Assembly: GCA_963762145.1 (NCBI GenBank)
Contig: CAVXJS010000015.1
Span: forward strand, 336,256 to 400,255
DNA from: an uncultured Candidatus Rokubacteria bacterium
Lineage (GTDB): Bacteria > Methylomirabilota > Methylomirabilia > Rokubacteriales > CSP1-6
Reading direction: 5' to 3'
DNA length: 64,000 bases
Shown here: in pieces, positions 7,082 to 60,011 of the stretch
How positions within the stretch are numbered: the stretch's first letter is position 1
How the letters are laid out: every line of letters begins with the position of its first letter
Notes under the pieces: model-generated
Told to the model about the DNA's origin: nothing
The model's database searches: none
Seen by the model: only the letters and a program-made list of their open reading frames with translations
Program-made: the position numbers and the translations under genes

Positions 7082-8062
7082 CTACTTGAGGTGCGCGAGC
7101 CGGGGCCAGAGATCGGCGTTGGCGAGCACGTGCGGCTTCTCCCCGCGCAGCACGCGGAGCATCTCGGCGGTCACCTGCAGCGCCATCCCGCGCATCGTCT
7201 CCCGCGTCACTCCCGCGATGTGGGGCGAGACGATCACGTTCTCGAGCTGGAAGAGCCGGTTGTCGGAGGACGCGGGCTCCTCCTCGAAGACGTCGATGCC
7301 CGCCGCGCGGATCTTGCCGCTCTCGAGCCCGGCGACGAGCGCGTCCTCGTCCTGGGTCTTGCCCCGGGAGGTATTCACGAAGATCACGCCGTCCTTCATC
7401 TGGGCCACCGCGGCGGCGTCGATCATGTGATGCGATTCCTTGGTGTGCGGCGTGTGGCACGTCACCACGTCGGCCTGGCGCAGCACCGAGGCCATGTCGG
7501 GCATCGGCTCGACCCCGCGGTTGCGCACCTCGTCCGCGGGCACGTACTTGTCGTAGCCGATCACCCGCATGCCGAGGGCGGCCGCGGTCCGGGCCACCCG
7601 CCGGCCGATGTTGCCGACGCCGATGATGCCGAGCGTCTTGCCGTTCATCTCGAGCATGCCTTCCCAGCGGGCCTTGCCCCAGTCGGCCTTCCGCGTGCGC
7701 TGGTCCACCACCACCGCCTGCTTGGCGCACGCCAGCATGAGCATGATCGCGTGCTCGGCCACCGAGTTCGAGTTGGAGCCGGGCGCGTGCACCACCGCGA
7801 CCCCGAGGTCGGTGGCGGCGGGCAGGTCCACGATGTCGAGGCCGACGCCGTGGCGTCCGACCACCTTCAGCTTCGGGCAGGCAGCCATCAAGCTCCGGGT
7901 GCAATCCGGCTTGAGCCGGAACAGGATGCCCTCGGCCTCCTTGGCCGCCTCGATCATGCCGGCCTCGGTCTCGGCGTTGGTGACGACGACCCGGGCTTCC
8001 GCCTCCAGTTGCTTCATCCCATCCGCGTGGATGGGCCCACCGAGCACCACGAGCGGTTTCAT
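7082..8062 (-). CDS. D-isomer-specific 2-hydroxyacid dehydrogenase (SerA-like, no ACT domain)
   Basis: GRHGVGLD, SVAEHA, Rossmann GIIGVGNIG, VNTSRG, DVFEEEP, SPHIAG. Confidence 0.9.
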   Translation of the reverse strand: MKPLVVLGGPIHADGMKQLEAEARVVVTNAETEAGMIEAAKEAEGILFRLKPDCTRSLMAACPKLKVVGRHGVGLDIVDLPAATDLGVAVVHAPGSNSNSVAEHAIMLMLACAKQAVVVDQRTRKADWGKARWEGMLEMNGKTLGIIGVGNIGRRVARTAAALGMRVIGYDKYVPADEVRNRGVEPMPDMASVLRQADVVTCHTPHTKESHHMIDAAAVAQMKDGVIFVNTSRGKTQDEDALVAGLESGKIRAAGIDVFEEEPASSDNRLFQLENVIVSPHIAGVTRETMRGMALQVTAEMLRVLRGEKPHVLANADLWPRLAHLK

Positions 8063-8069
8063 GGCGCGC

Positions 8070-8075
8070 ATTATA
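8070..8075 (-). promoter_or_regulatory. Perfect -10 box TATAAT 7 nt before the dehydrogenase ATG (likely leaderless transcript)
   Basis: Minus strand reads TATAAT-gcgcgcc-ATG; no SD sequence. Confidence 0.55.
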
Positions 8076-8078
8076 ACC

Positions 8079-8094
8079 TGGCACGGACGTTGCC
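8079..8094 (+). promoter_or_regulatory. Sigma-54 (-24/-12) promoter upstream of udgX
   Basis: TGGCACGGACGTTGCC matches TGGCAC-N5-TTGC with exact GG-N10-GC spacing. Confidence 0.75.
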
Positions 8095-8119
8095 GGGGAT
8101 CATGAGCCGGAGCCCATTC

Positions 8120-8770
8120 ATGGACCCGAAGCGCCTCGCGCCGACGCTCGACGCCTTGCGCCGCCGTGCCGCCGATTGCACGGCGTGCGACCTCTACAAG
8201 CGCGCCACCCAGACCGTCTTCGGCGAGGGACCGGCACGCGCGCCCATCGTGATCGTGGGTGAGCAGCCCGGGAACGAGGAAGACCTCGCGGGCCGGCCGT
8301 TCGTGGGACCGGCCGGGCGTCTCCTCGACCAGGCCCTGGCCGAGGCCGAGCTCGACCGCCGGCGGGTCTACGTCACGAACGCGGTCAAGCACTTCAAGTG
8401 GAAGGCGACGTCCGGTGGCAAGCGCCGCATTCACGAGCGCCCGCGCCCGGAGGAGGTGGAGGCGTGCCACCCGTGGTTCGAGCAGGAGCTCTGGCTGATC
8501 CGGCCGGCGGTCCTGATCTGTCTGGGCGTGACCGCCGCCCAGGCCGTGCTCCGGCGTCGCGTCACCATCCGGGACGCGCGCGGGCACGCTCTCGTGTCAC
8601 CGCAGGGCATCCCCACCTTCGTCACCATCCATCCCTCGGCGATCCTGCGGGTCCCGGACCGTGACTCACGCGAGGCCGAGCTTCACCGGCTGGCGAGTGA
8701 TCTGCGACGCGCCGCCGCCCGCGCCCGGAACCGACGCGTTTTGCGCGCCGTGGAAGAAACGACCCGGTAG
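8120..8770 (+). CDS. udgX: UdgX-type family-4 uracil-DNA glycosylase / uracil-DNA binding protein with 4Fe-4S cluster
   Basis: CxxC (CTAC), VGEQPG, TNAVKHFK, R-loop GKRRIH, HPSAILR; GGAG SD before ATG 8120. Confidence 0.88.
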   Translation: MDPKRLAPTLDALRRRAADCTACDLYKRATQTVFGEGPARAPIVIVGEQPGNEEDLAGRPFVGPAGRLLDQALAEAELDRRRVYVTNAVKHFKWKATSGGKRRIHERPRPEEVEACHPWFEQELWLIRPAVLICLGVTAAQAVLRRRVTIRDARGHALVSPQGIPTFVTIHPSAILRVPDRDSREAELHRLASDLRRAAARARNRRVLRAVEETTR

Positions 8771-8863
8771 AAGTTCCTGTCGGCTCCGGCGCCCGCGAGG
8801 GCGCGGCGGCACCCGAGGCGGCGAAACATTGAGGTTCACGCGCGGCCCCGCCCGTCCTCCCGC

Positions 8864-8879
8864 TGGCACGTCGCTTGAA
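8864..8879 (+). promoter_or_regulatory. Probable sigma-54 promoter upstream of the nucleotidyltransferase
   Basis: TGGCACGTCGCTTGAA: perfect -24 element, -12 variant TTGA, correct spacing. Confidence 0.6.
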
Positions 8880-8950
8880 CTCTCGGCGCGGCCACGCATT
8901 CAACGAGCCACTCGAAAACGACCGAGCCCGAGCGGGCCGGAGGAGCCGGC

Positions 8951-9940
8951 ATGAAGGAAGAGACGGCACTGGCAGATGGGCAGGAGGACGGACAGGTATC
9001 CCCGCGGCCGGAAGCACAGCACTGCTGGGCGGTGATCCTGGCCGGAGGCGAAGGCATGCGCCTTCGCCCGCTGGTCCGCCAGGTATGCGGCGCCGATCGG
9101 CCGAAGCAGTACGTGCGCCTCCTCGGCCCACGCACCCTGCTCGGCCAGACCCTGGACCGGGTCTCGCTCGCCTTACCGGAGGAGCGGACCCTGGTCGTCA
9201 CCGTGCGGCGACATGCCGGTTACATCGCCGAGGAGTTCTCCAACGGCTCTCGCCCTCGCATCCTGGCTCAGCCGCTCGATCGGGGTACCGCCGCCGGCGT
9301 GCTCTACCCCGCGCACTGGATTGCGTGGCGGAACCCGGAGGCGACGGTGGCCATCTTCCCGTCCGATCACTTCTTGCTCGGCGACGCGGCCTTCATGGCC
9401 CACGTTGCGGAAGTGACCGGCTGGGTCGAGAAGAATCCGGAGCGGCTCGTCCTGCTCGGCGCGCAGCCGACGTCGCCCGAAGTGGAGTATGGGTGGATCG
9501 AGCCCGACGGGGTGCTGGGGGATCTGTCCACCGGCGCGGTCCGGGGCGTCCGGCAGTTCTGGGAGAAGCCGTCGGTCGCGCGCGCCCGCGCGTGCCTGGC
9601 GGCCGGACACCTGTGGAACACGTCGGTCCTGGTCGGCAAGGTGGCCACATTGCTGCAGATCGGCTGGCAGGCGCTTCCCGAGCTGAGCGATCGGCTCGCC
9701 CACATCGAGCCGTTCGTGGGCACGAGCGACGAGGCCGAAGCGGTCCGTCAAGCCTACGAGCTGATGCCCCGAGCCAACTTCTCGAAGAACGTCCTGGAAG
9801 TGTGCCCGGATGCCCTCGCGGTGTCGCGACTACCGCGCGTCGTGTGGTCCGATCTGGGCAGTCCCCACCGGGTCATGGAGGCGGTCACCCGGATGCGGAT
9901 TCGCCCGGAGTGGGCCGAAACCCTGGCGCCGTCGGCCTGA
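8951..9940 (+). CDS. Mannose-1-phosphate guanylyltransferase-like sugar-phosphate nucleotidyltransferase (no cupin/PMI domain)
   Basis: ILAGGEGMRL, PKQY, FPSDH, EYGWI, FWEKP, WSDLGS; SD AGGAG. Confidence 0.85.
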   Translation: MKEETALADGQEDGQVSPRPEAQHCWAVILAGGEGMRLRPLVRQVCGADRPKQYVRLLGPRTLLGQTLDRVSLALPEERTLVVTVRRHAGYIAEEFSNGSRPRILAQPLDRGTAAGVLYPAHWIAWRNPEATVAIFPSDHFLLGDAAFMAHVAEVTGWVEKNPERLVLLGAQPTSPEVEYGWIEPDGVLGDLSTGAVRGVRQFWEKPSVARARACLAAGHLWNTSVLVGKVATLLQIGWQALPELSDRLAHIEPFVGTSDEAEAVRQAYELMPRANFSKNVLEVCPDALAVSRLPRVVWSDLGSPHRVMEAVTRMRIRPEWAETLAPSA

Positions 9941-49152: not shown

Positions 49153-50268
49153 GTGGCCGCCACCGCGCGCGCCGCCGTCTTCTTCGGGCCCGGCAAGCCC
49201 TTCGAGATCAAGTCCGTCCCGATTCCCGAGGTCGAGCCGGAAGGCGTGCTGATCCGGGTGTCGCACGCCAACATCTGCGGCTCCGACCTCCACTTCTGGC
49301 GCGGCGACGCCCCGCTGAGGCTGCCCGACGACGGCTGGCTCTTCGGCCACGAGATGACCGGGCGCGTGGCGCGGCTCGGGTCGAAGATCAAGACCGACTC
49401 GCTCGGCCGTCCGCTCAAAGAGGGTGACCGGGTGGCGTACACCTACTTCTACCCGTGCGGGCGCTGCTACGCGTGCATCCACCAGGAGCCCGCCGCCTGC
49501 CCCAACAAGATCGAGCGGCCGGTGGGGCCCAGCGTGTTCCCGCACCTGCACGGCGCCTTCGCCGACCACTACTACCTGCGCCCCGGCGGCCAGCTCTTCC
49601 TGGTGCCGGACTCGCTGGCCGACTCGGCGGTGGCGGGCGTGAACTGCGCCCTCTCCCAGGTCCTCTACGGCCTGCACGTGGCGGGCCTCCGGCAGGGCGA
49701 CGCGGTGGTGATCCAGGGCGCGGGCGGCCTCGGCATCCAGGCCGCCGCGGTGGCCAAGGACATGGGCGCGCAGAGCGTGATCGTGGTGGACCAGATCCCG
49801 GGGCGCCTCGAGCTGGCGCGGGCCTTCGGGGCCGACCACACGATCAACGTCAAGGACGTGCCCGACCGGCGCGAGCGGGTGAAGCTGGTGCGGCAGTGGA
49901 CGGGCGGGGTCGGCGCGGACGTGGCGTGTGATCTGGTGGGCTTCCCGGCCGTGATCCCCGAGGGGATCGAGATGCTCCGCTCGGGCGGGACGTATCTCGA
50001 GATCGGCACGATCAGCCGCGGGGCCAAGGTGGAGCTCGAGCCCTCGCTCCTCGTGTGGGGATCCAAGAAGATCGTGGGCGTGATCCAGTACGACCCGTGG
50101 GTGATCCCGCGCGCGCTCGACTTCCTCGTGCGCACGCGCGAGAGCCGGCCGTGGGGCCGCATCCTCTCGCACACCTATCCGCTCGAGCAGATCAACGAGG
50201 CCTTCGCGGCCTCGGAGTGGCACAACCGCGAGACCACGACGATCACCCGCGCCGCCCTCACGCCGTGA
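49153..50268 (+). CDS. Zinc-binding medium-chain alcohol dehydrogenase
   Basis: ICGSDLH, GHE, CGRCYAC...C, QGAGGLG. Confidence 0.92.
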   Translation: MAATARAAVFFGPGKPFEIKSVPIPEVEPEGVLIRVSHANICGSDLHFWRGDAPLRLPDDGWLFGHEMTGRVARLGSKIKTDSLGRPLKEGDRVAYTYFYPCGRCYACIHQEPAACPNKIERPVGPSVFPHLHGAFADHYYLRPGGQLFLVPDSLADSAVAGVNCALSQVLYGLHVAGLRQGDAVVIQGAGGLGIQAAAVAKDMGAQSVIVVDQIPGRLELARAFGADHTINVKDVPDRRERVKLVRQWTGGVGADVACDLVGFPAVIPEGIEMLRSGGTYLEIGTISRGAKVELEPSLLVWGSKKIVGVIQYDPWVIPRALDFLVRTRESRPWGRILSHTYPLEQINEAFAASEWHNRETTTITRAALTP

Positions 50269-51100
50269 GCCGGACCATCGCGGATCTGATCGAGGAGCGC
50301 TTCGGGCTGCCGACCGAGGCGGGGCGGGCGCGTCCCGCCGAGGGCCCCCTCGCCCTGCTGCTCTCGCACCGGACGCAGCGCCGCTACAAGCCCGACCCGA
50401 TCCCGGCGGACGTGCTCGAGATGGCCCTGGCCGGCGCGCTCTCCGCGCCGTCGAAGTCCGACCTCCAGCAGGTCGGCATCGTGCTCGTGCGCGACCGCGA
50501 CAAGCAGGCCACCATCGGCGGATTGATCCCCGACATGCCGTGGATCGCGCAGGCCCCGCTCTTCATGGTGTTCTGCGGCGACCACCGCCGCATCCGCCGG
50601 GTGAGCGAGCTGCGCGGGCGCCCGTTCCCCAACGACACGCTCGACATGTTCATGAACGCGGCGGTCGACGCGGGGCTGGTCCTGCAGGCCTTCATCACCG
50701 CGGCGGAGGCGCTCGGCCTCGGGTGCTGCCCGATCAGCGTGGTGCGCAACCACGTCGAGAAGGTCGCCGCGCTGCTCGAGCTCCCCCCGGAGTCTTCCCG
50801 GTGGCCGGCCTCTGCGTGGGCTATCCGCGGGAGCCGGGGTGGACCAGCATGCGGCTCCCGCCCGCGGTGACGGTGCACACCGACCGCTACGACGACGCCG
50901 ATCTCCCCGCGCAGCTCGCGGCCTACGACGTCCGGCGCGAGGGCCGGCACGCCACCCCGAGGGAGAACCAGCGCTTCGTGGAGCGCTTCGGGTACTCGGA
51001 GCCCTACGGCTGGTCGGAGGACAAGGCGCGGCAGTACTCGGTGCCGGAGCGCCACAACTTCGGACCGTTCATCCGGGCCCACGGCTTCGGACTGATCTGA
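50265..51100 (+). CDS. NfsA/Frp-type nitroreductase; frameshift near 50790
   Basis: HRTQRRY, SAPSKSDLQ, AAVDAG, GLGCCPIS.VRN, RLP...VH. Confidence 0.88.
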
Positions 51101-51133
51101 CGCTCCGCGGGGCGCGGGCGCCGGAGTGATGCG

Positions 51134-51463
51134 CTAGGGCCCGGGATCGAAGCAGACGCCGACGCGCCCACGCTCGCAGGCGCACTCGAGCTTGGTCCCG
51201 CCCGGGCCCGCCATGATCACGAAGCGCCCCACGCAGGACGGGCGCCGGCTGAGCTGGATCGCGGCGATCCCGGCCATCAGGGCGACCACCACGCAGACCG
51301 CGATCGCGAACGTCCGCCGCTCCAGTCGCCGGTTGTCCTGGATTCCCGCTTCCCGCCGCCAGGGCGCCCGCCGCTGCCGGCGCTGCAGGCGAAAGAACAG
51401 GAAGAGCGAGCCGCCGGCGAGCAGGCCCGCCATGGTCAGCAGGATGACGAGATTTTCTAGCAC
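51134..51463 (-). CDS. Small two-TM protein with a Cys-rich C-terminus
   Basis: GTG at 51463; TM - basic loop - TM, then C..CAC..C tail; no family recognised. Confidence 0.5.
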   Translation of the reverse strand: MLENLVILLTMAGLLAGGSLFLFFRLQRRQRRAPWRREAGIQDNRRLERRTFAIAVCVVVALMAGIAAIQLSRRPSCVGRFVIMAGPGGTKLECACERGRVGVCFDPGP

Positions 51464-51605
51464 GTGAGCTCGACGATTCGCTGAGGAGGCTGCGCCACCC
51501 TCGAAGCGCACCGAAGTGTAGCACGACCGGTCGGGGCCGTCCCTCGCGGGGCGTATCCCGATCGGCACTCTAGCCGCGCCCGGATCCTCGTGGGACGGTG
51601 GGGCC

Positions 51606-52041
51606 GTGCTCTACTCCCTGCCGCAGATCCGGCTCCTGATCCTGCTCGCCCTCGCGCTGCTCGTCGGCCTGGGCGTTCGCGAGTGGCGGGCCGGCTTCCC
51701 CGATGCGGCGCTCCGACTGGAGCGATTCGATCGCGACGAACCGCCGACGCCGCTCGTGGGCGAGGCGCCCGGGACGCCGGCGCCCCCCACGGCCCCCCGG
51801 GCAACTCCGCCCGCGCCGGCCCCGCCCGCGCCGACGCCGATCAAGCCCCTCGACGTCAACCGCGCCGCCGCGGCGAGAGCTCGCCGCCTTGCCCGGGGTG
51901 GGGCCCGGGCTCGCGCAGCGCATCGTCGAGGAGCGCGAGCGGCGGGGGCGCTTCGACTCGCCCGAGGCCCTGCGCTACGTCCTGGGCATGGGGCCGAAGA
52001 AGCTCGCGGCCATCCGCCGCTTCATCACCGTGAGTGAGTGA
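51606..52041 (+). CDS. comEA: ComEA-like helix-hairpin-helix DNA receptor; frameshift near 51870
   Basis: N-terminal TM, Pro linker, LDVNRA...ELAALPGVGPGLAQRIVEERE..GRF, V.GMGPKK. Confidence 0.88.
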
Positions 52042-54430
52042 GCGGGGGCTCGAGCGCGCGCCGCTCCTGCCGCCCGCCGCCGCGTTCACCGCGGGCATCG
52101 CCGCCGCCGGGTGGCTGTCGCTCCCCGCGCCGCGAGTGCTGGCCGCCGCGGCCGCGCTCCTCCTGATCGCCCTGCTCGCGAGCCGCCGGCATCCGCGGGC
52201 GGCGCTGGCGCTGGTCCTGGCCGGCGTGACCCTGCTGGGTGCGCTGCGCGCGGCCGGGTCGCCCCTGCCCGCCGATCACCTGGCCCGGCGCGTGCTCGTC
52301 GGGACGCAGACCCTCGAGGGGCGACTCGCCGAGGAGCCGGTCCGCTGGACGCCCGATCGTACGCGGATCCTGCTCGACGTGGACGCGCTGCACGCGGGCC
52401 CGGAACGACTGCCCGCCGCGGGCCGCGTCCAGCTCACCGTCTACGGCGAGCTCGGTCTCCCGCTCGGCGCGGACCAGCGGGTGCTCGCGGACGCCCGGCT
52501 GCATCGGCCGGTCGGCTTCCGGAATCCCGGCGGCTTCGACTATCCGGCCCATCTGCGGCGCGAGGGCGTTCTCCTGGTCGGCCACGCGCGGGCGGACCGG
52601 ATCGTCGCGTTGACGCCGGACACCCCGCCGTGGCCGGTGGCGGTGAAGCGATGGGCGGTCGGCGTGATCGCCGCGCGGCTGCCCGAGACGTCGGCCCCGC
52701 TGCTGGCGGGCCTGCTGCTCGGTGAGCGCTCGGCGCTGCCGCGTGAGATCGACGCGGGCTTCCGGCGGGCCGGCGTCTACCACATCCTCGCGGTGTCGGG
52801 CTTCAACGTGGCGCTCCTGGCGGGCGCGGTGTTCGGCGCGCTGGGCCTGTGCGGCGTCCCGCGCCGCGGCGCCGCCGGGGTGGCCGCGGGCGTGCTGGTC
52901 GGGTTCGCGCTGGTCGTGGGCGGCCAGCCGTCCGTGCTGCGCGCCACCGTGATGGGATTGCTCCTGCTCGGGGCCCTGTTGCTCGACCGCGAATCCCAGC
53001 TTCCAAACGCCCTGGCCCTGGCCGGCCTCGGGCTCTTGCTCTGGCGGCCCGGCGATCTCTGGGAGCCCGGCTTCCAGCTCTCGTTCGCGGCCACCGCCGG
53101 CATCGTCCATCTCGGGCCGGCTGTCACCGCGGGCCTCGTCGCCCGCGGCGCGCCGGGCTGGCTCGCGGGGGCGGTGGCGGTGAGCCTGGGCGCGCAGGCC
53201 GCGGTCACGCCGCTCATGCTCGCGCACTTCAATCAACTCTCGCTGATCGGCGTGGTCGCCAACCTGCTCGTGGTGCCGCTCGCCGCGGTGGCGACGACCC
53301 TCGGGATGCTCGCGCTGCTGGTGGAGCTGGCCTCGAGCACGCTCGCCGCGCTGCTCTTCCACGCGCTCTGGATCGTCCTGATCGCGCTGCGCGCGGCCGT
53401 CTCGCTGGCCGCCGCCCTGCCCGCCGCGATGGTCCACCTGCCGTCCCCGTCGGCGACGATCGCGGTCGCCTGGTACGGCGCGCTCCTGCTCGCGCCCGGG
53501 ATCGCGGCGTCCCGTCGCGTCCGGCTCGTCGTGGGTGTCCTGGTGACCCTGGTCGCCGCGCTCTCGATCTGGCCGTGGCTCCGTCCGACCGAGTCCATGC
53601 TGCGCGTCACGTTCCTCGACGTCGGCCAGGGCGACGCGACGCTCATCGAGCTGCCGGAGGGGCCGCGGCTGCTCGTGGACGGCGGGCCCGGCGGCGCCCG
53701 CCACTTCGACGTGGGCGAGCGCGTGCTGGCGCCATTCCTCTGGAACCGGCCGCTGGCTCGGCTCGACGCGGTCGCGCTCACGCACTGGGATGCCGATCAC
53801 TCGGGCGGGCTGGCCGCCGTCCTCACCCATTTCCACGTCGGCGAGTTCTGGGAGAGCGGCCGCCCGCCCGGCGGCGCGCCGGAGACGGTCGCCGCGCTCG
53901 TGCGGTCGCGCGCGCCCCGCCGGGCGCTGGCCGCCGGCCAGCGTCTGTGGCTCGGGCCTGCGCTGATCACGGTGCTGGGGCCGGGACCGGATCCGGCCCA
54001 GAGCGCCAACGACCAGTCCCTGGTGCTGCGGCTCGACTGGCGGGGCGTCTCACTCCTGCTCGCGGGCGACCTGGGGGCGCGCGGCGAGACGGCGCTGCTC
54101 GAGCGCGCGGGCCCGGTGGCGGCGCTCGCGCTCAAGGTCGCCCATCACGGCAGCCGGTTCTCGTCCACCGCGCCGTTCCTCGAGCGGGCCCGCCCGCGGC
54201 TCGCGGTGATCTCGGTGGGCGCGCGCAATCCCTTCCGCCATCCGAGCGTGGAGGCGCTCGCCCGGCTGGAGGCGGTGGGCGCGCGCGTCTACCGCACCGA
54301 CCGCGACGGCGCGGTCATCCTGGAGACCGACGGGCGCGTCCTGCGGGTGACCGCGTGGGCCCGCGGCGTCCGCGAGACCTGGGAGCTCGACCCCGAACGG
54401 ACCCCGGAAGCACCACGGCCCCCGGGATGA
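52034..54430 (+). CDS. comEC: DNA internalisation competence protein ComEC/Rec2
   Basis: NPGGFDY, HILAVSGFNV, PSVLRA, GFQLSF, DVGQGD, THWDADHSGG, KVAHHGS, YRTDRDGAV. Confidence 0.95.
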   Translation: MSERGLERAPLLPPAAAFTAGIAAAGWLSLPAPRVLAAAAALLLIALLASRRHPRAALALVLAGVTLLGALRAAGSPLPADHLARRVLVGTQTLEGRLAEEPVRWTPDRTRILLDVDALHAGPERLPAAGRVQLTVYGELGLPLGADQRVLADARLHRPVGFRNPGGFDYPAHLRREGVLLVGHARADRIVALTPDTPPWPVAVKRWAVGVIAARLPETSAPLLAGLLLGERSALPREIDAGFRRAGVYHILAVSGFNVALLAGAVFGALGLCGVPRRGAAGVAAGVLVGFALVVGGQPSVLRATVMGLLLLGALLLDRESQLPNALALAGLGLLLWRPGDLWEPGFQLSFAATAGIVHLGPAVTAGLVARGAPGWLAGAVAVSLGAQAAVTPLMLAHFNQLSLIGVVANLLVVPLAAVATTLGMLALLVELASSTLAALLFHALWIVLIALRAAVSLAAALPAAMVHLPSPSATIAVAWYGALLLAPGIAASRRVRLVVGVLVTLVAALSIWPWLRPTESMLRVTFLDVGQGDATLIELPEGPRLLVDGGPGGARHFDVGERVLAPFLWNRPLARLDAVALTHWDADHSGGLAAVLTHFHVGEFWESGRPPGGAPETVAALVRSRAPRRALAAGQRLWLGPALITVLGPGPDPAQSANDQSLVLRLDWRGVSLLLAGDLGARGETALLERAGPVAALALKVAHHGSRFSSTAPFLERARPRLAVISVGARNPFRHPSVEALARLEAVGARVYRTDRDGAVILETDGRVLRVTAWARGVRETWELDPERTPEAPRPPG

Positions 54431-54470
54431 GCCGGAGGCCGTGGCGGACGCGCGGGAAGCGGGAGGCGGT

Positions 54471-55470
54471 CTAGGTCTCGAAGGCGCGCTCGTAGTGCGC
54501 GCGCAGCCGCTCCAGCTCTTCGGGATCGAGACGCATGCCGAGGGAGAGCCCCATCTCGCCCAGGATGGTCTTGATCTCGTTCAACGACTTCTTGCCGAAA
54601 TTCTTGGTCTTCAGCAGCTCCGACTCGGTCTTCTGCACGAGGTCCGCGATGGTGCGGATGTTCGCGGTCTTGAGGCAGTTGGACGCGCGCACCGACAGCT
54701 CGAGCTCGTCCACGTTGCGGAAGAGGTGCTCGTTGACCTCGCTCCGCGGCGCCGGCTCGCCCGCGACCGCCTCGGTCCCCTCGGCCTGCACCGGCGGCGT
54801 GGACGGGAAGTCGATCAGCAGCGCGAACTGGTCGTCGAGGATCCGCGAGGCGTCGGCCACCGCGGTCTCCGGCGTCACCGTCCCGTTGGTCCACACCTCC
54901 ATGATGAGCCGCTCCTGCCCGCCCTTCGGCTCCACGTGGAAGTTCACGCGCTTCACCGGCGAGAAGTCCGCGTCCATCATCATCGCGTTGATGGGCAGCG
55001 CCTCGGGCTCGCGCTTCTCCGCCGCCTGGTAGCCCCGCCCGCGCTCCACGCACACCTCCATCTCGAGGCTGCCGTCCTTGTCGAGCGTGGCCAGCGCCAC
55101 CTCCGGCGTCAGGATCTCCACGTCCGGATCGGGCTCGAAGTCCCGGGCGGTCACCGTCGCGGACCCCCTGGGCCTTCAGGCGGAGCAGCTTGGGGCGGTT
55201 GACGTGCAGCGTGAACACGAGCTTGCGCAGGTTCAGGATGATGTCGAGGGTGTCCTCGCGCATCCCGACCAGGTGCGAGAACTCGTGCAGCACCCCCTCG
55301 ATCTTGACCCAGGTGGGCGCGGCCCCCGTGATGGAGGACAGCAGCACCCGGCGATAGGCATTGCCCGCCGTCAGGGCGAACCCAGGCTCGAAGGGCTCGA
55401 TCGCGATCTTCCCGTAGGCGCGCTCCCGGGCGAGCCATTCGTGACGGACTGGAAGCACCAGCTCCTGCAT
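54471..55470 (-). CDS. rpoA: RNA polymerase alpha subunit homologue, divergent and stand-alone; one frameshift at the C5 run 55164-55168
   Basis: [37 protein letters not shown], alpha-[16 protein letters not shown]...[10 protein letters not shown]. Confidence 0.92.
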
Positions 55471-55516
55471 GGGTTTCCCTCCTCGGAATTCTGGGGCGGG
55501 TCGCCCCAGGCCGGTC

Positions 55517-55525
55517 ATTATACCA
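55517..55525 (-). promoter_or_regulatory. Extended -10 promoter of the rpoA homologue
   Basis: Minus strand TGGTATAAT (TGn-TATAAT), then an 8-bp leader hairpin (55491-55509) and a purine-rich SD. Confidence 0.65.
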
Positions 55526-55604
55526 GCAACTTCCGGGACCGCCACCCTTCCCCACCCCTCCGGTTTGACTGAGAATCCCAGTCCGGCCAGAATGAAGGCT
55601 CACC

Positions 55605-56671
55605 ATGATGGAACGTCCCCGATCGCTTCCGACATGGGGGGTTGGGCCCGGACGCCCCGGGCCGACCTGGCGGGCCGCCGTCGGCTTCGTGGTGGTCGTG
55701 GCCCTCCTCGCCCTGCTCCTCGAAGGCTGGTGGATCCTCAGCGTCCCGGCCCCGCTACGCGCCTCGGCCCGGGTCGTCGAGCTCCCCGCCCACAAGGGCG
55801 TCATCGAAGTGGCCGAGATCCTGGACGAAGCGGGCGTGATCCGGAGCCGGGTCGGCTTCATCATCCTGGCCCTGGCCCGGGGGAGCTTCCGAAGCCTCAA
55901 GGCCGGGGAGTACCAGATCCCCGCGGGCTCCAACACGGTGCGGGTGCTCGAGCAGATCGCGGGTGGCCAGGTCCTCCAGCACATGGTGATCTTCCGCGGA
56001 GGGCAGCACCCTGGGCGAGCTGGCGCGGCTGCTGCAGACCGAGCGGCTGGTGCCGGCCGAAGAGATCCTCCGGGTCGGCAAGGACCCCGTCTTCCTGAAG
56101 AACCTGGACATCCAGGCCGACTCGGTGGAAGGCTACCTCTTCCCGGACACCTACCAGTTCGTGAAGGGCATGACCCCGGAAGAGATCCTGGCCCGCATGG
56201 TGGCGCGGATGCGCGAGAAGATCTCGCCCGAGCTTCTTGCGGAAGCGCGCAGCCGCGACCTGAGCCTGCACCAGGTGCTGACGCTCGCCTCCATCATCGA
56301 GAAGGAGGCCGTCGAAACGAGCGAGATGCCGCTCATCTCCGCGGTGTTCTGGAATCGCATCCGGAAGAGACATGCCGCTGCAGGCGGATCCCACCGTGCA
56401 GTACGCCGTCGGCAAGGACCGCAAGCGGCTCACCCGCGAGGATCTCCAGGTGGACTCGCCGTACAACACGTACCGGCGCCAGGGTCTCCCGCCGGGCCCC
56501 ATCGCGAGCCCGGGCCGCGCGGCCATCACGGCGGCGGTGCGGCCGGCGCGCGTCGCCTACCTCTACTTCGTGTCGCTGGACGAGCGGTTCCACACGTTCT
56601 CCACCACCCTGGCCGATCACAACGCGGCGGTCGCCCGGTACCGCCTCGCGCGCGCTCGCCCGCCCACGTAG
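55605..56671 (+). CDS. mltG: Endolytic transglycosylase MltG; two frameshifts
   Basis: LKAGEY, EGYLFPDTY, TLASIIEKE, LQADPTV.Y, SPYNTY..GLPPGPI.SPG, YLYFV; upstream TTGACT-N17-CAGAAT. Confidence 0.92.
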
Positions 56672-56774
56672 CCGGCATTCGTAGCCGGTATTCAGCGGCC
56701 GGCGGGGTCGAGGGCGCCCTCCCTTCCGGGTGCGGTTGTCAGCGTGGGGGGTGGGTGCTATAAACGAGCGAGTC

Positions 56775-57525
56775 ATGGCCTCCGGCGAAGACTCCTCCAC
56801 CCTGTCCGTGCTACGCCCCGGCGCGTCCGCGGCGTCGCGCCGCGTGCTCGTGGAGGCGTTTCCCCCGGTTTATCGTGCGTCCCGCGCGCGTGGCGGGATG
56901 GCTGCTGCACGGGCTGTTCGATCTGCGGGTCGCGGGAGCGGAGCGGCTGCCCTCGTCCGGGCCGTTCATCCTGGCCGCCAACCACCACAACTATCTGGAC
57001 GGCGTCGTGCTGGGCGTGGCGGTGCCGCGGCCGATCTCGTTCGTCGTGATGCCGCGCGTGTTCCGGGCGACGCCGCTGCACCCGCCGTTTCACCGGCGCA
57101 TCGGCTCGATCCCGATGACGCTCGAGCGGCCGGATCCCGGCGCCATCAAGCGCGTGCTGCAGGTGCTCGAGGCGGGCCGCGTGGTGGGCATCTTCCCGGA
57201 GGGCCCGTTCAGCCAGGAAGGCCGGCTCGTGGGCGGGCCGGCCCGGGGCGGCGATGGTCGCGCTCCGCGCCGGCGTCCCGGTGGTGCCCGCGGCGATCGA
57301 GGGCACCTACGAGGCGCTCCGCGGGCGGCGCTTCTACCTGCCGCGGCGCCGGCCGCTCGCGGTGCGGTTCGGACGAGCCGATCCATTTCGGCCGGGCGCG
57401 CCTCGGGCCCATCGCGCGGATGGAGCGGGACGACGCCACCCGTCGCATCATGTCGCGAGATCGCCGCGCTCCTGCGCGTGCCGCCCGCCCCCGCGGCGGC
57501 CGCCGGCCGCGCGGGCGCCTCGTGA
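56775..57525 (+). CDS. Lysophospholipid acyltransferase (PlsC-like); frameshifted
   Basis: AANHHNYLD (NHxxxxD), GIFPEG, VPVVPAAI.GT. Confidence 0.82.
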
Positions 57526-58935
57526 CCGCCGCCGGCACGCCCCCGGGCAAGGCCTGGTCCGGGCGCTTCGCCGCAGGGGCCGATCCGGCCGCCGAGGCCT
57601 TCACCGCCTCCCTGTCCTTCGACCGCCGGCTCTGGCCCTACGATCTGGCGGGCAGCGCGGCGTGGGCGCGCGCGCTCGCGCGGGCCAAGCTGATCACCGA
57701 GGCGGAGCTCGAGAGCCTGCTCGCCGGGCCTCGACGGCGTCCGCGCGCGAGCTCGAGGGCGGCACCTTCCCGTTCCGGCGCGGAGCTCGAGGACATCCAC
57801 ATGAACGTGGAGCGGCGGCTCATCGAGGTGGCGGGGCCGGTCGGCGGCAAGCTGCACACCGGCCGCTCCCGGAACGATCAGATCGCCCTCGACGAGCGGC
57901 TCTATCTCCGCGACATCCTCGACCACGTGGACGCGGGACTGGTCGAGGTGGAGCGCGCGCTCGTGGCCCAGGCCGAGCGGCATCCCGAGGCGCCGATGCC
58001 CGGCTACACGCACCTGCAGCGCGCCCAGCCGGTGCTGCTCGCCCATCACCTGCTCGCCTACGTCTTGATGCTCGAGCGCGATCGCGCGCGCTTCCGCGAC
58101 GGCCGCGCGCGGGTCAACGTGATGCCGCTCGGCGCCGCCGCCCTCGCGGGCGCCGCCTTCGCCATCGACCGCGAGGCGCTCGCGCGCGATCTCGGGTTCA
58201 GCGCGCCCAGCCCCAACAGCATGGACGCGGTGGCCGATCGCGACTTCGTGCTGGAGTTCCTCGCCGCACGCCGCGATCCTCGGCATGCACTGCTCGCGGC
58301 TCGCCGCGGATCTCACCCTGTGGGCGACGTCCGAGTTCGGCTTCGTGGAGTTCTCGGACGCCTTCGCGACCGGCTCGTCCATCATGCCGCAGAAGAAGAA
58401 CCCCGACGTGGCCGAGCTGATCCGGGGCAAGACCGGCCGGCTCTACGGCAACCTCACCGCCGGGCTCACCGTCATGAAGGGGCTCCCCCTCACCTACAAC
58501 TCGGACATGCAGGAGGACAAGGAGCCGCTCTTCGACACGGTCGACACGCTCGAGGCGATCTTTCGCGTCCTGCCCCCGATGCTCGGCGCCGTGACCTTCC
58601 GGATCGACCGCATGCGGGACGCGGCGGGGGCGCACTACTCCACCGCCACCGACCTGGCGGACTATCTCGTCCGCCAGGGCCTGCCCTTCCGCGACGCGCA
58701 CGAGGTCGTCGGCCGCGCGGTGCGCCACGCCATCACGCGCGGCGTGGAGCTGGGCGACCTGCCGCTCGAGGAGCTGCGCGGGTTCTCACCGCTGATCGGG
58801 CGCGACGTCTACCCCGCGCTGACGGTGGAGGCCTCGCTGCGCGCGCGCGCGGTCATAGGCGGCACCGCGCCGGACGCGGTCCGGCGACAGCTCGAGCAGG
58901 TCCGGGCGCTGCTCGCGGGCGGGCCGGGCGCATGA
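57522..58935 (+). CDS. argH: Argininosuccinate lyase; frameshifted
   Basis: WSGRF, EDIHMNVE, KLHTGRSRNDQ, MPGYTHLQRAQP, TGSSIMPQKKNPD, PFRDAH. Confidence 0.95.
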
Positions 58936-60011
58936 GGGCGGGGGCGCGGGGCGCGCTGCTGCTCCTCCTGGCCGCGAGCGCGCTGGTCGCCTGCGGCAAG
59001 AAGGGGCCGCCGGTGGCGCCCGAGTACCGCGTGCCGCTGGGCCCCAGCGGCCTGCACGGCGCGGTGGACGAGCAGAGCGTGGTGGTGAGCTGGACCGGCC
59101 CCGACACCCGGGTAGACGGCACGCGCCTGCGCGCGATCGCGCTCTACAAGCTCTACCGGCGGGAAGAGGCCAACGGCGGAGAGCCCAAGTCGGCGATGCT
59201 CTCGTCCGGACGCGTCGTCGGCTACGACGAGATCGCGACGATCCGGACCGACGACCCCGCGCCCGCGACCGTGCAGGGCACCTCGGTCACGTGGGTGGAC
59301 CGGCGCGCGCTGGCGGTCGGCCGCCGCTACATCTACGTGGTCACCGCCGAGGACACCCTCGGGCGGAGCAGCGCGCCCTCCGAGCGCCTGGTGGTCCCGT
59401 ACCTGGCGGCCCCGAAGGCGCCCCGCGCGCTGAGCGCGGCGCCGGGCGACCGCCGCATCGGGCTGACCTGGCAGCCGCCCGCCGAGATGATGGACGGCTC
59501 CCCCGCGCCGGGCGATCTCCGCTACCTGGTGCTGCGGGGCGCGGGCGCGGAGGGCGCGCTCGCCGCGATCACGCCGAAGCCGCTCGAGGCCACCTCGTTC
59601 ACCGACGAGGGCCTGGAGAACGACACCGACTACCGTTACGCGGTACGCGCGGTGCGGGTGGATCCGGCGGTGACCGCCACCGGCGAGACCTCGGTCGCCG
59701 GTGGTCGTCGCGGCGGCGGACACCACGCCGCCCGTCGCGCCCGCCAACCTGCTCGCGGTGCCGTCCCCGGGCGCGGTGCGGCTGGCCTGGAACCCGAGCG
59801 GCTCACCGGACGTGGCGCTCTACGCGATCTATCGCGCGGGCGAGACCGGCGATTTCATGCGCATCGCGACGACGATGGCGATCGCGACCGTCTACCTGGA
59901 CCGCGACGTGCGGCCCGGCGCGACCTACCGCTACGCGGTCACCGCGATCGACCGGGCGCGCCGCCCGAACGAGAGCGCGCGCTCGAACGAGATCTCCGTC
60001 CGTCTCCCTAG
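58932..60011 (+). CDS. Lipoprotein with about three fibronectin type III domains; frameshift near 59700, 3' end uncertain
   Basis: Lipobox ACGKKGPP; repeated W..P, Y.(L/I)YR and Y.Y.V.A motifs. Confidence 0.8.

Follow-up and report, generated by a model that had tools for sequence, protein, structure and literature searches.

The alpha subunit of bacterial RNA polymerase is, in the textbook view, a homodimer, with Francisella as the studied exception; the two unlike subunits of that genus, alpha-1 and alpha-2, were reportedly the subject of work by Charity et al. in 2007. Duplications of the alpha gene, rpoA, are noted for Francisella, Chloroflexus and Streptomyces avermitilis in passages of PMC3294249, and passages of PMC13374769 describe the bacterial alpha module as a homodimer, with no mention of Francisella in that text. 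Here we describe a stand-alone rpoA gene, rpoA2, in a 64,000-nucleotide stretch of DNA (the window) from an uncultured Candidatus Rokubacteria bacterium (assembly GCA_963762145.1, contig CAVXJS010000015.1, positions 336,256 to 400,255). The same genome contains another rpoA gene in its ribosomal protein operon, and the pair recurs across the order of the window, which we take to be named Rokubacteriales. In the following, A1 denotes the operon copy, A2 the stand-alone copy and S the single copy of the sister orders.

The window gene is a full-length rpoA on the minus strand, which is interrupted by one extra base in this assembly (Table 1). The A2 protein analyzed is the read-through across this break, and about three of its residues at the break are unlike those of the relatives. 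It contains the dimerisation and insert domains (PF01193, 65.1 bits; PF01000, 93.6 bits) and the DNA- and activator-binding C-terminal domain (CTD; PF03118, 95.2 and 91.9 bits versus a cut-off of 23.8). It also scores above the NCBIfam rpoA equivalog cut-offs, given here in brackets: NF003513 368.4 (302), NF003519 325.3 (277) and TIGR02027 312.2 (227.8). The A1 protein likewise passes the rpoA equivalog cut-offs. An earlier note on this DNA, made from the sequence alone, had placed an rpoA between comEC and mltG. The domains, the equivalog scores and the domains of the neighboring genes bear this out, and the motif strings quoted there are present. The CTD residues that the note equated with E. 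coli R265, N268, N294, G296, K298 and S299 are present as well, this equivalence being presumed rather than read from an E. coli alignment. The absence of ribosomal operon genes was likewise correctly noticed, as no rpsK, rpsD or rplQ lies near A2 and the operon is found on another contig.

That contig (C21) carries the gene order secY-adk-map-rpsM-rpsK-rpsD-rpoA-rplQ, and the A1 protein encoded there is 38% identical to A2. The earlier note had considered A2 a second alpha with its own promoter, and had left room for a simple relocation of the only rpoA. A search of this genome and of its relatives found the operon gene, and the core of the claim holds, with an rpoA between rpsD and rplQ in the same genome and the pair distributed over the order. 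Copies were counted as PF01000 matches in 150 other genomes of the phylum, each at least 85% complete. Within the window's own order, 92 of 109 genomes had at least two matches, 15 had one and two had none; in the other orders of the class, two matches were found in 2 of 41 genomes, one in 38 and none in one. These tallies include five unpublished genomes, and without them the values are 91 of 106 for the own order versus 2 of 39 for the sister orders. The placement of both genes is constant. A1 lies between rpsD and rplQ at all nine own-order loci that were checked and in four further A1 genes, as does S in the sister orders. The neighborhood of A2 is also conserved, as the earlier note had proposed to verify: comEC, rpoA2, mltG and a gene for an acyltransferase keep their synteny at 17 of 17 loci with enough flanking sequence, which come from two families. 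The source records of the A2 orthologues are labeled Candidatus Rokubacteria, Rokuibacteriota or Methylomirabilota, and the annotation is always plain "subunit alpha".

Three further loci deviate from this arrangement. In a family f2 genome (G025, 73% complete), the sole alpha found is the operon copy (L026:997-1977). It is basal in the A1 clade and keeps the HEFS motif and a canonical CTD, so the degeneration of A1 would postdate the separation of f2, or else f2 possesses one alpha only. In a sister-order genome (G135), a second, divergent alpha gene follows the operon copy at a distance of about 3 kb (L049:4049-5101 and 8018-9025) and is preceded by an rpsK-like gene; it represents a separate duplication, because it groups with P0136 (100/99) inside the sister-order clan. 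In a family f4 genome (G033), the only alpha seen is sister-order-like (L076, contig G033:C358), with 48% identity to S, a distant rplQ and a contig of 2.6 kb, and probably stems from bin contamination.

The two copies differ in where their N-terminal domains (NTDs) are conserved. Footprints in E. coli, as given in passages of PMC3294249, show that beta protects alpha residues 30-55 and 65-75 and that beta-prime protects residues 175-185 and 195-210. Column entropies were determined for 23 A2, 24 A1 and 11 S rows, using two adjacent windows of nine columns per segment; the E. coli numbers were assigned by us with the help of residues that PMC3294249 names, without an aligned E. coli sequence. 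In the region of the VLHEFS segment (about E. coli 59-76), the entropies were 0.48/0.83 for A2, 1.61/1.29 for A1 and 0.77/0.39 for S. In the loop at about E. coli 188-201, they were 1.23/1.20 for A2, 0.30/0.53 for A1 and 0.05/0.41 for S. The A2 loop differs in length and sequence between genera (PKGGQE, GQADGHE, PLPAAAADGPTME and PAKRKPGAE), which points to relaxed constraint, and it lacks an R191-type arginine, save for some basic residues. The earlier note had described this loop as five residues shorter. This is correct in comparison with A1, with the sister-order alphas and with 7xya_A (333 residues), but it is not a fixed deletion: the loop is short or variable among the A2 orthologues and its length changes with the genus.

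The remainder of the A2 NTD is strongly conserved, with a mean column identity of 77% and conservation of helix 1, of the R45 equivalent and of VLHEFS. In A1, 54 columns are invariant, helix 1 and the RLG..DYE loop among them. The equivalents of K86 and K200 are arginine in 25 of 25 A2 rows. At dimer-interface positions named in passages of PMC3294249, fixed differences were found at position 35, which is tyrosine in 25 of 25 A1 rows, and at position 43, which is tyrosine or phenylalanine in 25 of 25 A2 rows. Compensatory co-variation at this interface was also considered and was dropped, since A39 (A2, this genus) and I50 (A1, this family) do not co-vary cleanly.

The reading that we lean towards is that A2 is a working second alpha and that A1 and A2 form an oriented heterodimer on a single beta/beta-prime pair; searches of this genome, which is 88% complete, gave a single match each for rpoB and rpoC. 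A subunit of a homodimer must keep both surfaces, yet each of the two paralogues has relaxed one of them, and this argues for an oriented pair. In this pair, A2 would occupy the beta side (alpha-I) and A1 the beta-prime side (alpha-II), and A2 would supply the main DNA- and activator-binding CTD, which would be the sole one in families f3 and f4. We infer both the formation of the heterodimer and the position of each copy from the sequences. Among the three roles that the earlier note had offered, filling only one position in a heterodimer fits best, while an alternative polymerase and a titration of activators and UP elements fit less well.

The same two genes could also produce two alternative homodimeric polymerases, (A1)2 and (A2)2, which use a common beta and beta-prime and differ in the promoter sets or growth states that they serve. 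We regard this as unlikely. A1 would then be made alongside the ribosomal proteins, and A2 would depend on a promoter of its own. A1 and A2 do have separate promoters and genomic contexts, the R45 equivalent and most helix-1 residues are kept in both copies, and a weak activity of the alpha-1 homodimer is reported for Francisella in passages of Mukhamedyarov et al. (2011; PMC3294249). However, in homodimers each protein has to fill both positions, but each paralogue has lost constraint on one footprinted segment. Furthermore, (A1)2 would be without any CTD in f3 and f4, and the one-chain proteins described below show the same pattern and argue for the pairing of unlike NTDs.

Several observations weigh against the oriented heterodimer. 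Seventeen genomes of the own order fall short of the pair, 15 with one PF01000 match and two with none; they are incomplete metagenome-assembled genomes in which an alpha gene may have been lost. The relaxed A2 loop (189-199) overlaps the beta-prime footprint at 195-210 only in part, and the positions compared with the footprints depend on the mapped numbering. The R45 equivalent, which the earlier note had seen to be kept in A2, is an arginine at the mapped position in 62 of 62 rows and is present in 25 of 25 A1 and 25 of 25 A2 rows, in contrast to alpha-2 of Francisella; either copy may thus still be able to bind beta. Lastly, in family f1, to which this genome belongs, the A1 CTD is conserved though diverged; because f1 A1 retains its CTD, an enzyme with a single CTD does not apply to this genome.

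The CTD of A2 was claimed to be very conserved, and among the A2 orthologues it is in fact near-invariant: window entropies are 0.00-0.29, invariant columns form long runs, and a conserved tail follows it. For A1, a diverged CTD is kept in families f1 and f5, and the CTD is absent in f4 (12 of 12 genomes, several genera) and in f3 (1 of 1). The CTD-less A1 proteins comprise the NTD and an acidic linker, have 236-255 residues, and are directly followed by rplQ. The high conservation of the A2 CTD and tail would also be compatible with a protein that is mostly off the polymerase and acts as a free, CTD-bearing titrator of activators or UP elements. We consider this extremely improbable, as the A2 NTD is strongly conserved too, which is expected of an assembled subunit and not of a decoy.

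Both genes are under purifying selection, with ratios of non-synonymous to synonymous substitution rates (dN/dS) in ten within-genus pairs of 0.10-0.19 for A2 and 0.08-0.18 for A1. These values bear on the notion that A2 was relocated and is the sole working alpha, as a homodimer, and that A1 is a relic with a role in translation coupling of the operon or outside the polymerase. A2 has the higher rpoA model score (NF003513, 368.4 versus 314.2 bits for A1) and is closer to S (49-54% identity versus 41-44% for A1), and VLHEFS is gone from A1, as is the CTD in two of the families. However, selection on A1 is as strong as on A2, A1 has its 54 invariant columns and its constant placement between rpsD and rplQ, and a hypervariable loop would be unexpected if A2 had to bind beta-prime as well. 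This notion is therefore rather improbable in our view. The same scores and identities contradict the title of the earlier note, which had called the stand-alone alpha divergent: A2 is the less diverged paralogue. The PF01000 scores, among the matches listed and where a type could be assigned, were about 93-111 bits for A2-type, about 84-88 for A1-type and 112-134 for single-copy proteins. The best relative of A2 in the PDB is 7ye1_A, with about 49% identity over the first 102 columns (hand count) and an E-value of 1.6e-82.

The structure of a complex of two A1 NTDs and two A2 NTDs was predicted and obtained a score of 0.48, while the best of three controls obtained 0.00. Of 157 solved complexes, 116 reach the mark for this score, as do 2 of 215 mismatched pairs; only 18 of those 157, and both mismatched pairs, do so at 0.60 or under. 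The runs agreed in at least 69% of the contacts, and the predicted local distance difference test (pLDDT) values of the partners were at least 79. This prediction lends weak support to an assembly of A1 with A2; it gives no interface and does not separate heterodimers from homodimers, and its score may reflect the likeness to solved alpha dimers.

A comparable arrangement was found in two Margulisbacteria-type genomes, in another phylum, where two unlike NTDs are joined in one protein. The operon rpoA of Candidatus Termititenax persephonae is a single open reading frame (P0128) that encodes two insert domains and one CTD, and a counterpart from an uncultured bacterium, also inside the operon, is 52% identical to it (Table 1). 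In both proteins, HEFS is missing from the first NTD, which retains the RVG..DYD loop and whose RR pair is altered, by R44Q in one protein and to KK in the other. RR and HEFS are retained in the second NTD, which has a short, degenerate loop and is the one joined to the CTD. In a related metagenome-assembled genome of the Margulisiibacteriota (L082), alpha is an ordinary protein of 325 residues. The one-chain proteins present the A1/A2 pattern in covalent form, as an independent parallel, and support the pairing of unlike NTDs as well as the viability of a single CTD. Two other long alphas were also noticed. P0239 (664 aa, a low-GC representative) seems to comprise two complete alpha-like units in one chain, each with a CTD-like end. 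P0124 (569 aa) was set aside, as it is an exact internal repeat and likely an artefact.

The origin of the pair was analyzed with a phylogenetic tree (LG+C20+F+G4) of 70 rows, namely 12 of A2, 13 of A1 and 10 of S, plus 35 representatives; it did not include near-identical sequences, the read-through of the window gene or the truncated copy of genome G026. In this tree, an alpha phylogeny having been proposed by the earlier note, A1 and A2 form clans (100/99 and 100/100) that together make up one side of a branch (99/95). The stem lengths are 0.47 for A2 and 0.35 for A1, and by sequence comparison both copies evolve faster than single-copy alphas. In helix 1, GFG is changed to G[FY]A in both copies. 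This shared change and the mirrored family order in both clans favor one old duplication at the base of the window's order, which would have given rise to A1 and A2. A1 and A2 are likewise favored as sisters, with long-branch attraction as a caveat; a constraint that joins A2 with S is 22.3 log-likelihood units worse but is not rejected by the approximately unbiased test (p-AU 0.119). The present tree replaces an earlier LG+G4 tree, of which the free search was worse than the constrained one (p-AU 0.655). An origin of A2 by horizontal gene transfer was rejected, as the best non-A2 representatives were at most 49% identical for three A2 queries and thus no closer than S (49-54%).

The extra base in the window gene needs separate consideration. 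The earlier note had located the frameshift in a run of five C at 55164-55168, but an alignment with the closest relative (G013, A2 protein identity 97%) places it in CCGCGAC, a few nucleotides away (Table 1). The relatives read QGVRTVTARDF where the A2 frame breaks. Over about 10.4 kb (window 49465-60008), there are 22 single-base indels versus G013; mltG is spread over three frames in the window and is a single frame in G013, and the plsC-like and argH frames are broken likewise. Because these three genes are each distributed over several frames, the consensus quality of this assembly is locally poor. In the operon region on contig C21, where the genes are intact, 6 single-base indels occur over about 7 kb. 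An intact full-length A2 orthologue with 90-97% identity is present in 16 of 20 same-genus genomes, and no A2 copy was found in the other four (one 63% complete, three 90-91% complete). Since neighboring genes are broken alike and 16 of 20 genomes have an intact gene, the A2 frameshift is most likely an assembly or consensus error. The extra base is present in the assembly as given, and a biological frameshift would make the window gene a real pseudogene in this strain. We judge this very improbable. The comparison with G013 yielded a dN of 0.0116, a dS of 0.102 and a dN/dS of 0.11 (8.5 non-synonymous and 23.5 synonymous differences), which does not indicate the decay that the earlier note had envisaged, at least three neighboring genes have similar single-base indels, which is jointly implausible in a living cell, and no further stop codons occur in either frame part of A2. 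Fourteen soil DNA sequencing runs contain at least half of the sampled sequence words; for six metatranscriptome runs, the share was 0.24-0.33, which is not evidence of expression.

Table 1. Positions of the features of the rpoA2 locus in the window, and of the one-chain alpha genes at their own loci.
Feature	Coordinates	Strand	Remarks
rpoA2 (A2)	54471..55470	-	ATG 55470-55468, stop 54473-54471; 332 codons + stop; one extra base interrupts the frame in this assembly
VLHEFS segment	55276..55293	-	about E. coli 64-69, inside beta-protected 65-75; present in A2, gone from A1
Short loop PKGGQE	54912..54929	-	about E. coli 189-199, including the R191 position; hypervariable across A2 orthologues
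Alpha CTD (PF03118)	54558..54740	-	near-invariant across A2 orthologues
Conserved C-terminal tail, 18 residues, past the CTD	54474..54527	-	similar tail aligns in 7ye1_A, the best solved relative
Extended -10 box TGGTATAAT	55517..55525	-	sequence and upstream regions of relatives
Leader hairpin	55491..55509	-	8-bp GC stem, 3-nt loop
Shine-Dalgarno motif GAGGAGGG	55477..55484	-	sequence, relatives compared
Single extra base	~55157..55160	-	in CCGCGAC; DNA alignment to G013 and protein alignment
comEC	52034..54430	+	convergent neighbor; Competence, DUF4131 and Lactamase_B domains
mltG (YceG family)	55605..56671	+	divergent neighbor; two single-base insertions give three frames in this assembly
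One-chain alpha	L081:3001-4578 (BGZO01000033.1)		Candidatus Termititenax persephonae, 526 aa
One-chain alpha	L132:1455-3023 (CAYUXF010000042.1)		uncultured bacterium; ~523-aa match in a 542-aa open frame

The upstream signals that had been claimed for A2, an extended -10 box, a leader hairpin and a Shine-Dalgarno motif, were all found (Table 1). A TATAAT- or TATACT-like box is present 45-91 nt upstream of the ATG at 20 of 20 A2 loci. By eye, 14 of the 20 upstream regions contain TGnTAnnnT, and the remaining 6 contain GCTATAAT or ACTATAAT. A consensus promoter scan did not call the A2 -10 box, because a match to the -35 element is absent. A GGGG-loop-CCCC hairpin follows the -10 box in about 10 of the 20 relatives (also by eye); the hairpin in the window is only moderately beyond shuffled sequences (z -1.9; 9 of 200 shuffles fold equally well), and Rfam yielded no match for the leader. 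In one f4 genus, a conserved CTGTCAATTTC motif was seen about 85-100 nt upstream of the A2 start at 5 of 5 loci (L021-L025), on the upstream side of the GCTATAAT box and roughly 45-50 nt from it; a regulator might bind there, or the motif may belong to the divergent mltG promoter. In the window, a promoter-like TTGACT-17-CAGAAT is located at 55565-55593 on the plus strand, just upstream of the mltG start at 55605 and divergent from the rpoA2 promoter.

In the full-text literature, with subscription journals lying outside it, we found no report of an rpoA duplication in Rokubacteria or Methylomirabilota and, judged by titles and the beginnings of abstracts of the papers listed, none of a Termititenax alpha or of naturally fused alpha NTDs. 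A wider proposal is that the polymerase of the whole order, whose members are abundant in soil, is built on an obligate, oriented A1/A2 heterodimer, with a single alpha CTD in two families, and that the same split of roles, with one NTD adapted to the beta side, the other to the beta-prime side and a single CTD, arose independently in one chain in Margulisbacteria. We put it forward tentatively. If it is true, the order would provide a second natural system, order-wide, old and independently evolved, for studying how the two alpha positions differ, and would raise the questions of whether a polymerase can do with one CTD and by what route asymmetric pairs of alpha-like proteins evolve. The gene rpoA is in use as a marker gene. 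Because both genes are annotated simply as rpoA, the duplication can distort contamination estimates from single-copy markers as well as marker trees for this order.

The canonical homodimeric RpoA of E. coli and Thermus has the same three domains as A2, and the best solved structures matched by A2 are ordinary alphas (E. coli 10ma_G, E-value 1.6e-65). In contrast to canonical RpoA, A2 is encoded outside the rpsD-rpoA-rplQ operon, between comEC and mltG, and has a paralogue. Its sequence differs by GFALT[AV]G in place of GFGxTLG, by the short and variable 189-199 loop, and by arginine at both K86 and K200. A second rpoA outside the operon is shared with Chloroflexus and S. avermitilis; according to passages of PMC3294249, those paralogues are without drastic change in the dimerisation or beta/beta-prime regions, whereas here each copy has relaxed or lost a segment.

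The likeness to Francisella is closer. As described in passages of PMC3294249, that genus has two non-identical rpoA genes lineage-wide, the first inside the ribosomal operon and the other outside it; both copies evolve faster than single-copy alphas, and a lineage-specific duplication is favored. In Francisella, the two alphas have lost beta-side and beta-prime-side determinants in complementary fashion; in the present pair, it is segments that are relaxed, with R45 kept in both copies. The pair described here would be of independent origin, lies in a different phylum, and has the depth of an order. Here the stand-alone copy is the conservative and beta-side-like one, whereas in Francisella it is the operon copy, alpha-1, that keeps R45 (same passages). 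Another difference is that the operon copy described here lacks the whole CTD in two families.

Alpha-like pairs from two different genes, one of them reduced, are also described in passages of PMC13374769 for archaeal Rpo3/Rpo11 and for eukaryotic Rpb3/Rpb11 and AC40/AC19. The A1/A2 pair is bacterial and has the full alpha architecture, and the resemblance is a functional analogy only. If the proposal is true, evolution in bacteria would repeatedly have led toward an asymmetry of the Rpb3/Rpb11 type, as found in archaea and eukaryotes.

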